In this document: positions 7,353 through 7,829 of the stretch, piece after piece
Numbering within the stretch: position 1 is the first letter of the stretch
Layout of the letters: the number at the start of each line of letters is the position of its first letter
Origin: Candidatus Thorarchaeota archaeon
GTDB lineage: Archaea > Asgardarchaeota > Thorarchaeia > Thorarchaeales > Thorarchaeaceae
Reading direction: 5' to 3'
Assembly (NCBI GenBank): GCA_038893995.1
Contig: JAWAQK010000054.1
Coordinates: forward strand, 1 to 15,293
DNA length: 15,293 nt
Made by a program: the position numbers and the translations under genes
The notes under the pieces: model-generated
What the model was told of the DNA's origin: nothing
Seen by the model: only the letters and a program-made list of their open reading frames with translations
The model's database searches: none

Positions 7353-7482
7353 GTCGAGGAGCGTCCAAAAGGAGTGATTTCGGTTGCTTGAGGAGGAGAG
7401 GATGTGTGCACTTGCTTGCAGGGTTTCAGGAGGATGCTCCATCACTTTGGACGGATGCACTAGGGATGGACGCTCACTCGAC
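7353..7482 (-). ncRNA. Putative small RNA A (about 130 nt) with a 15-bp terminal stem
   Basis: 7353-7367 GTCGAGGAGCGTCCA pairs with 7467-7482 TGGACGCTC-A-CTCGAC. TATA-like TTTAAAA (7505-7511, minus strand) lies at promoter distance. Strand is not certain. Confidence 0.4.
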
Positions 7483-7642
7483 AGGTCCTACACCCATCCA
7501 ATGCTTTTAAAGATTGCTAGTATCACAATGGAAGACCAAACCGTATGCGATTACCGCAACGCCCCCTGACGGAGTTGTAGTATCCGCAATAATCTTGGAC
7601 ATAACAGAATCGGTTAAATACGTTCACTGCGAAGATACTTAT

Positions 7643-7707
7643 AGACCCGGGGACATGTTTACAGAGCGTATCTCTCCTCCTCCTTCCTTGTTCTAGATCC
7701 CCGGGCT
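7643..7707 (+). ncRNA. Putative small RNA B (about 65 nt): terminal stem with CU-rich loop
   Basis: CCCGGGGA (7646-7653) pairs with TCCCCGGG (7698-7705) around a 44-nt loop. TTAAATA at 7614-7620. Confidence 0.4.
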
Positions 7708-7766
7708 CACCACCACGATCAGTTCAGATACACTTATATCCTATCAATAAGTATCATGCATTAATA

Positions 7767-7829
7767 GGGGACCCATTCGTTTCTTCTGCTCTCAGTCCAG
7801 CATCTCCGACAAGCGTTCTCTGGGTCCCC
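7767..7829 (+). ncRNA. Putative small RNA C (about 63 nt): terminal stem with pyrimidine-rich loop
   Basis: GGGGACCCA (7767-7775) pairs with TGGGTCCCC (7821-7829) around a 45-nt loop. TTATATC at 7734-7740. Confidence 0.4.

Follow-up and report, generated by a model that had tools for sequence, protein, structure and literature searches.

A 626-bp gap in the genome of this Candidatus Thorarchaeota archaeon very probably encodes three genuine, separately promoted noncoding RNA genes, here called A, B, and C, a conclusion that rests on comparative sequence analysis. The gap lies in the window (the whole stretch of DNA that was analyzed, 15,293 nucleotides long, to which coordinates refer unless a relative is named), and its length follows from the end of a HAD hydrolase ORF at 7265 and the ATG at 7892 that starts the next conserved gene. 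A, B, and C appear to be a set of three conserved RNA genes, each in single copy and not yet catalogued, with predicted promoters, a candidate operator, and covarying helices; metatranscriptome reads could readily be mapped to them, and their covariance models added to RNA catalogues. A sequence-only reading of the window had described the gap as holding no convincing coding sequence and three elements with paired ends, which it took for a single undescribed family of independently transcribed small RNAs with anti-Shine-Dalgarno-like (anti-SD-like) loops. The stems, loops, shared 11-mer, and TATA boxes were all found where that reading had placed them.

A conserved block without a conserved reading frame

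Sequence and synteny of the whole block are conserved in at least 13 genera of one Asgard archaeal family, with the same order and orientation. In the aligned loci of the relatives, the common order is A (minus strand), the TATA box of A, two to three palindromes of the 6-3-6 type, a TATA box and B, a TATA box and C, and finally a TATA box and a small membrane-protein gene. A DNA search of 40 related genomes matched the core of A in many genera, with the B loop matched about 255–280 nt from the A core on the same contigs, and in one relative a HAD hydrolase lies upstream of the RNA cluster, as it does here. The stems exceed what shuffled sequence yields: when only perfect stems of 8 bp or more around loops of 30–120 nt are counted, the gap contains five, whereas 200 Markov shuffles average 0.68 and one of them reached five.

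Within these boundaries the absence of a convincing coding sequence was confirmed. No ORF in the gap is conserved among the aligned relatives, where indels are not multiples of three and neither a frame nor a start codon is kept; a Pfam search gave no match in the RNA region, and no tRNA or tmRNA was found. Two short frames were rejected as coding. One is a plus-strand frame of 55 codons after a strong SD-like tract at 7402, whose start codon and frame are not conserved. The other, of 13 codons within B (7655–7696, plus strand, ATG at 7655), is probably meaningless because its start codon is absent from the relatives; its CU tract translates as a Pro-Pro-Pro peptide. A further candidate, one large RNA joined by an 11-nt long-range inverted repeat, was rejected on account of the separate promoters and closing helices and of the opposite strands of A and B.

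Three predicted RNAs closed by covarying helices

A covariance model was built from the locus alignments for each RNA (R1, R2, and R3 for A, B, and C, respectively). RNA A (7351–7486, minus strand, about 130 nt) scores 79.7 bits with R1 and is the sole copy in the genome. Its arms, 7353–7367 and 7468–7482, are paired with one bulge and a 9-nt perfect core, and single-sequence folding gives a closing helix of 16 bp. The helix encloses two hairpins that are optional, a pair of single-stranded tracts of the CCUCC type, a single-stranded core, and a U-run before the 3′ arm. The core, about 36 nt long (about 7376–7411), is near-invariant in 30 genomes, and it is kept together with the upstream CCUCC tract and, in 28 of 30 sequences, with a run of at least four U just before the 3′ arm; the hairpins can both be missing, as in minimal forms, which are 84 nt long. 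Of the 30 sequences, 29 contain CCUCC, and one genus has a divergent A in which the CCUCC tract is rewritten and the core flanks are retained.

The closing helix of A shows compensatory changes in 9 of 10 pairs, with 88% of cells paired as against 37–60% when the partner is slid, and its score is reached by none of 500 shuffles; these covariation figures, like those for B and C below, lean high because they come from model-fitted alignments of related genomes. The counts of G-U versus A-C cells (22 vs 14) are nearly neutral and too weak to settle the strand of A. The minus strand was assigned from the promoter, since a conserved half-site and TATA box occur on the minus-strand side only, and no TATA-type AT peak for the opposite strand was seen in 25 loci.

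RNA B (7643–7708, plus strand, about 60–66 nt) scores 51.9 bits with R2 and is likewise the sole copy in the genome. Its 8-bp stem, in which 7646–7653 pair with 7698–7705, closes a 44-nt loop; over 25 genomes, pyrimidines make up 76% of the loop and G makes up 10%. Compensatory changes affect 5 of 6 stem pairs; 89% of cells are paired, compared with 27–71% for slid partners, and 0 of 500 shuffles match the score. CCUCC occurs in 21 of 25 B sequences. The exact motif that the sequence-only reading had seen in both A and B was borne out: the 11-mer at 7672–7682 in the B loop is the exact reverse complement of 7390–7400, so that the minus strand of A and the plus strand of B carry an identical CU-rich 11-mer.

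RNA C (7763–7833, plus strand, about 63–70 nt) scores 35.5 bits with R3, again as the sole copy in the genome, and this genome's C is the most divergent copy in its family. Its stem of 9 bp (7767–7775 with 7821–7829) encloses a 45-nt loop that is 67% pyrimidine and 11% G. The stem covaries weakly, with compensatory changes in 2 of 7 pairs and mostly invariant GGGG/CCCC; 93% of its cells are paired versus 37–83% with the partner slid, and no shuffle of 500 reaches its score. Stem covariation was found in the relatives, strong in A and B and weak in C, and between genera whole closing helices have been rewritten. Across the three RNAs the loops are poor in G (10–16%). The G-U cells in the stems of B and C favor the plus strand (10 such cells in C). 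Runs of at least four T follow within 40 nt downstream at half of the B loci (11 of 22) and at 11 of the 18 loci of C; A and B of this genome have no clear T-run, and their 3′ ends are for that reason uncertain.

Predicted promoters and candidate operators

That each element has its own TATA-like box was likewise upheld: the predicted boxes begin 29–33 nt from the stems of A, B, and C, and they are conserved in 18–25 loci, about 26–36 nt upstream. The box of A (7505–7511, minus strand) corresponds to a conserved AT peak at −33 to −26 in 25 loci, and that of B (7614–7620, plus strand) to a conserved AT-rich box at about −36 to −27 in 22 loci. The box of C (7734–7740, plus strand) is near-invariant at about −32 to −23, with five columns that are 100% A/T in 18 loci.

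Between the promoters of A and B lie sequences (7514–7589) that resemble the operators of a dimeric transcription factor. The first, a 6-3-6 palindrome at 7514–7528, directly adjoins the TATA box of A where the BRE (TFB-recognition element) lies, and its half-site nearest that box is conserved in nearly all loci. The second (7545–7559) has the family consensus TTGCGA-N3-TCGCAA and recurs between the two promoters in 10 or more genera. The third (7575–7589), a degenerate copy, was read directly from the sequence. The three candidate operators are spaced at 31 nt and, from the second to the third, 30 nt. A dimeric transcription factor could bind these palindromes and so turn the RNA cluster on or off. 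When this genome was scanned for a palindrome regulon, 10 one-mismatch sites came up, about as many as chance would give (an estimated 5–10 or so).

Distribution within one archaeal family

A was matched in 33 of 61 genomes of the family and 13 of its 16 genera (R1), B in 24 genomes and 10 genera (R2), and C in 19 genomes and 7 genera (R3); because the sampled genomes are incomplete, a missing match is not equal to absence. Each RNA is present in one copy per genome and always in the cluster, with the exception of one genome that has a duplicate B match on a second contig. Outside the family, R1 was run under strict filters on 125 genomes, drawn from 26 families of the phylum, and gave no match to A. 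With filters off, weak copies of B and C appeared upstream of the membrane-protein gene in genera that seemed to be without them, and a weak copy of B was also found upstream of that gene in the one genome from the same order.

No cross-match among R1, R2, and R3 was obtained at E ≤ 0.01, and by this measure A, B, and C are three distinct RNA families. The proposal of a single undescribed family of independently transcribed small RNAs therefore stands in part. Synteny, single copy, covarying helices, separate TATA boxes, frequent T-runs, and the lack of an Rfam match speak for separate, undescribed genes; the single family has become three.

Possible action of the loops

Several observations bear on what the RNAs may do. 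In this genome the 16S rRNA has the 3′ end ...CACCUCCU, a tail that holds CCUCC. Genome-wide, about 15% of crude ORF starts have GGAG, with a peak at −16 to −12, and this positional peak implies that SD-led initiation exists in this genome. In the window itself, GGAGAU precedes 5940 and GGAGAA precedes 20, which agrees with the earlier suggestion that the loop motifs complement GGAGG/GGAGAU sites used by its genes, but most other crude starts show neither. The anti-SD-like character of the loops was also upheld in part: A and B retain CCUCC as described above, but only 6 of 18 C sequences contain it, the GCAUCUCC of C in this window is not conserved among relatives, and the tract is rewritten in the A of one genus. 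The A core is the antisense of an SD followed by an AUG after a spacer of 5 nt.

From the CCUCC of the 16S tail, the GGAG peak, the CCUCC of A and B, and the antisense match of the A core, we tentatively suggest that masking of SD ribosome-binding sites is the most likely action of these RNAs, at rather less than even confidence. In each RNA the stem holds open a G-poor, pyrimidine-rich loop. The exposed CCUCC tracts of A and B would then represent the core of the 16S anti-Shine-Dalgarno tail and could pair in trans with GGAGG-type ribosome-binding sites, lowering translation initiation; C, which mostly lacks CCUCC, might act through its own CU-repeat motif. The best explanation as a whole, namely three noncoding RNA genes, SD masking, and a palindrome-bound switch, is possible in our view and falls somewhat short of probable. 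If the CCUCC loops do mask ribosome-binding sites, these would be the first described translational riboregulators in the Thorarchaeota lineage. The open loop closed by a stem is an unusual way of presenting a seed.

Target searches, all of them crude, found generic SD complementarity and no specific conserved mRNA target. Exact searches placed the perfect complements of the 11-mer in Glu-rich coding sequence, not in ribosome-binding sites. No complement longer than 14 nt was found by blastn-short, and a search for starts combining an SD, an AUG, and a UGU gave generic SD complementarity only. Duplex energies for 2797 crude start regions, compared with gene interiors and shuffles in a test that is blind to the real 16S tail, favored starts over interiors by only 0.4–0.7 kcal/mol. 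For the two best target candidates, only the generic SD was kept in five relatives. As a separate observation, at one relative's locus (L165, G006:C13, before 32107) the ribosome-binding site of a thiolase-like gene is an exact 11-mer complement of the A/B motif; the orthologues in this genome and in four other relatives have ordinary SD variants.

The lack of a specific target suits a different reading, in which the RNAs are protein-binding decoys or scaffolds and their pyrimidine tracts, along with the U-run of A, bind or titrate an RNA-binding protein. Known sponges of this logic are CsrB and RsmZ, whose motif is GGA and whose partner is CsrA. A short motif repeated in unpaired loops, suiting partner titration, is common to them and to A, B, and C; the GGA motif and CsrA do not apply here. 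CCUCC or CUCYC occurs two or three times in each RNA. The near-invariant stretch of A, about 36 nt in 30 genomes, is longer than a pairing seed needs, which suits a protein or a ribosome as partner, and we consider that the length of this core, the U-run, and the rewritten tract fit such a partner at least as well as they fit SD masking. Candidate partners are a KH-type Dim2/Pno1-like protein, a type that recognizes the 16S 3′ tail, or an Sm-like protein on the U-run of A. Against this, no candidate protein is linked by neighborhood, the neighbors being a HAD hydrolase and a small membrane protein, and a motif copy number of one to four per RNA is low compared with classical sponges. On this evidence we regard a decoy or scaffold role as somewhat unlikely, though it deserves serious attention.

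A more far-reaching proposal can be made. The cluster could consist of transcription-factor-controlled mimics of the 16S 3′ tail that, abundant once induced, soak up SDs or a tail-binding protein, translation shifting globally from SD-led to leaderless or SD-less mRNAs; or A could be the RNA core of an Sm-type particle, with its U-run beside the terminal helix. We consider this improbable. The Sm-type reading, if true, would place such a particle in the closest prokaryotic relatives of eukaryotes.

Slightly more improbable again is that the elements serve in cis, as a leader, an attenuator, or a transcription-interference device of the downstream membrane-protein gene. B, C, and this gene do lie on one strand in a fixed order in every genome examined, and the gene is as family-restricted as the RNAs. 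It has, however, its own conserved TATA box after C (7853–7859, plus strand; a TTTAAAG-type box in the relatives), T-runs often separate the units, and A is divergent in orientation. Moreover, in this genome the start region of the gene is without a purine-rich site with which the loops could pair.

Comparison with known RNAs

The published record on regulatory RNAs in Asgard archaea seems nearly empty: full-text literature searches turned up no paper. The closest likenesses lie elsewhere. The cuckoo RNAs of Alphaproteobacteria (CcsR/RSs0680, the alpha-r14 group) are clustered siblings with a conserved CU-rich loop motif that is partly anti-SD; they consist of 2–4 short hairpins with a 9-mer motif in each small loop, occur in up to nine copies, and have been described as 321 RNAs in 78 bacteria (PMC4615179). 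Clustering, a CU-rich loop, compensatory variation in the stems, and a conserved genomic neighborhood are all features that they have in common with A, B, and C. In cuckoo RNAs, the CU-rich loop motif is the only conserved sequence. They are bacterial and multicopy, with small hairpin loops, whereas here one end-to-end helix surrounds a loop of 45–150 nt, there is one copy each of three different RNAs, and the promoters are of the archaeal BRE/TATA type. Membership in the cuckoo/alpha-r14 group found no backing in an Rfam model match (E up to 10 for the window and up to 5 for five relatives), and the architecture differs.

Among archaea, sRNA41 and sRNA154 of Methanosarcina mazei are intergenic RNAs with anti-RBS loops that repress translation by masking ribosome-binding sites (PMC5867862). 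They resemble the action suggested here for A and B, but they are Methanosarcina-specific, are unrelated to A, B, and C in sequence and structure, and have experimentally supported targets.

The end-to-end stems also recall processing stems, and so a known processed or guide class was considered, namely box C/D RNAs, H/ACA RNAs, or RNA rings excised at bulge-helix-bulge motifs. Inspection of the alignments revealed no C/D boxes, ACA boxes, kink-turn, or bulge-helix-bulge motif. The Rfam scan that the sequence-only reading had suggested found no catalogued family in A, B, or C, either in the window (E up to 10) or in five relatives (E up to 5). The RNAs are single-copy and their loops fixed and conserved, unlike the variable loops of guides, which makes membership in such a class very unlikely. 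Weak C/D-like Rfam matches in relatives were dismissed as spurious, as they fall inside the acidic tail of the membrane-protein gene. Identity with RNase P or SRP RNA was rejected, because the RNase P and SRP RNAs of this genome, which match archaeal family models, lie elsewhere (contigs C33 and C2).

Finally, that the elements are chance hairpins, a decayed gene, or the remnant of a mobile element, the last two of which the sequence-only reading had itself raised, is scarcely credible: short ORFs do overlap the region, but there is neither a conserved frame nor a protein-family match (none in Pfam), the stems exceed shuffles, conservation of the block across genera with compensatory changes already contradicts the idea, and single copies in a fixed context mean that A, B, and C are not a repeat or a mobile element.

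Genes around the cluster

The small membrane-protein gene (7892–8194, plus strand), which always follows C, is described here as context only. In the family, 26 of 26 genomes have a homologue; elsewhere in the phylum there are weak matches only. The gene adjoins the RNA cluster in 20 loci. Its start is likely the ATG at 7892, not the GTG at 7832 given by the ORF finder. This genome's protein is too divergent to be matched by the 144-residue protein of a relative, and the relatives' proteins carry a long acidic C-terminal tail.

Two further observations concern genes downstream. At their listed starts, a plus-strand ESCRT-III (Snf7) ORF and a minus-strand inositol-monophosphatase-family ORF share 12 nt (9167–9178), and the true starts of these ORFs probably lie further in. 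For the gene of a PLP-dependent enzyme (10590–11750, minus strand), the 80 records kept by a motif-seeded scan are nearly all bacterial, at 39–49% identity, and include Bacteroidota, Ignavibacteria, and Chloroflexota, with one record only from Thorarchaeota. This bacterial bias may reflect inter-domain transfer, or close kin left out by the scan.
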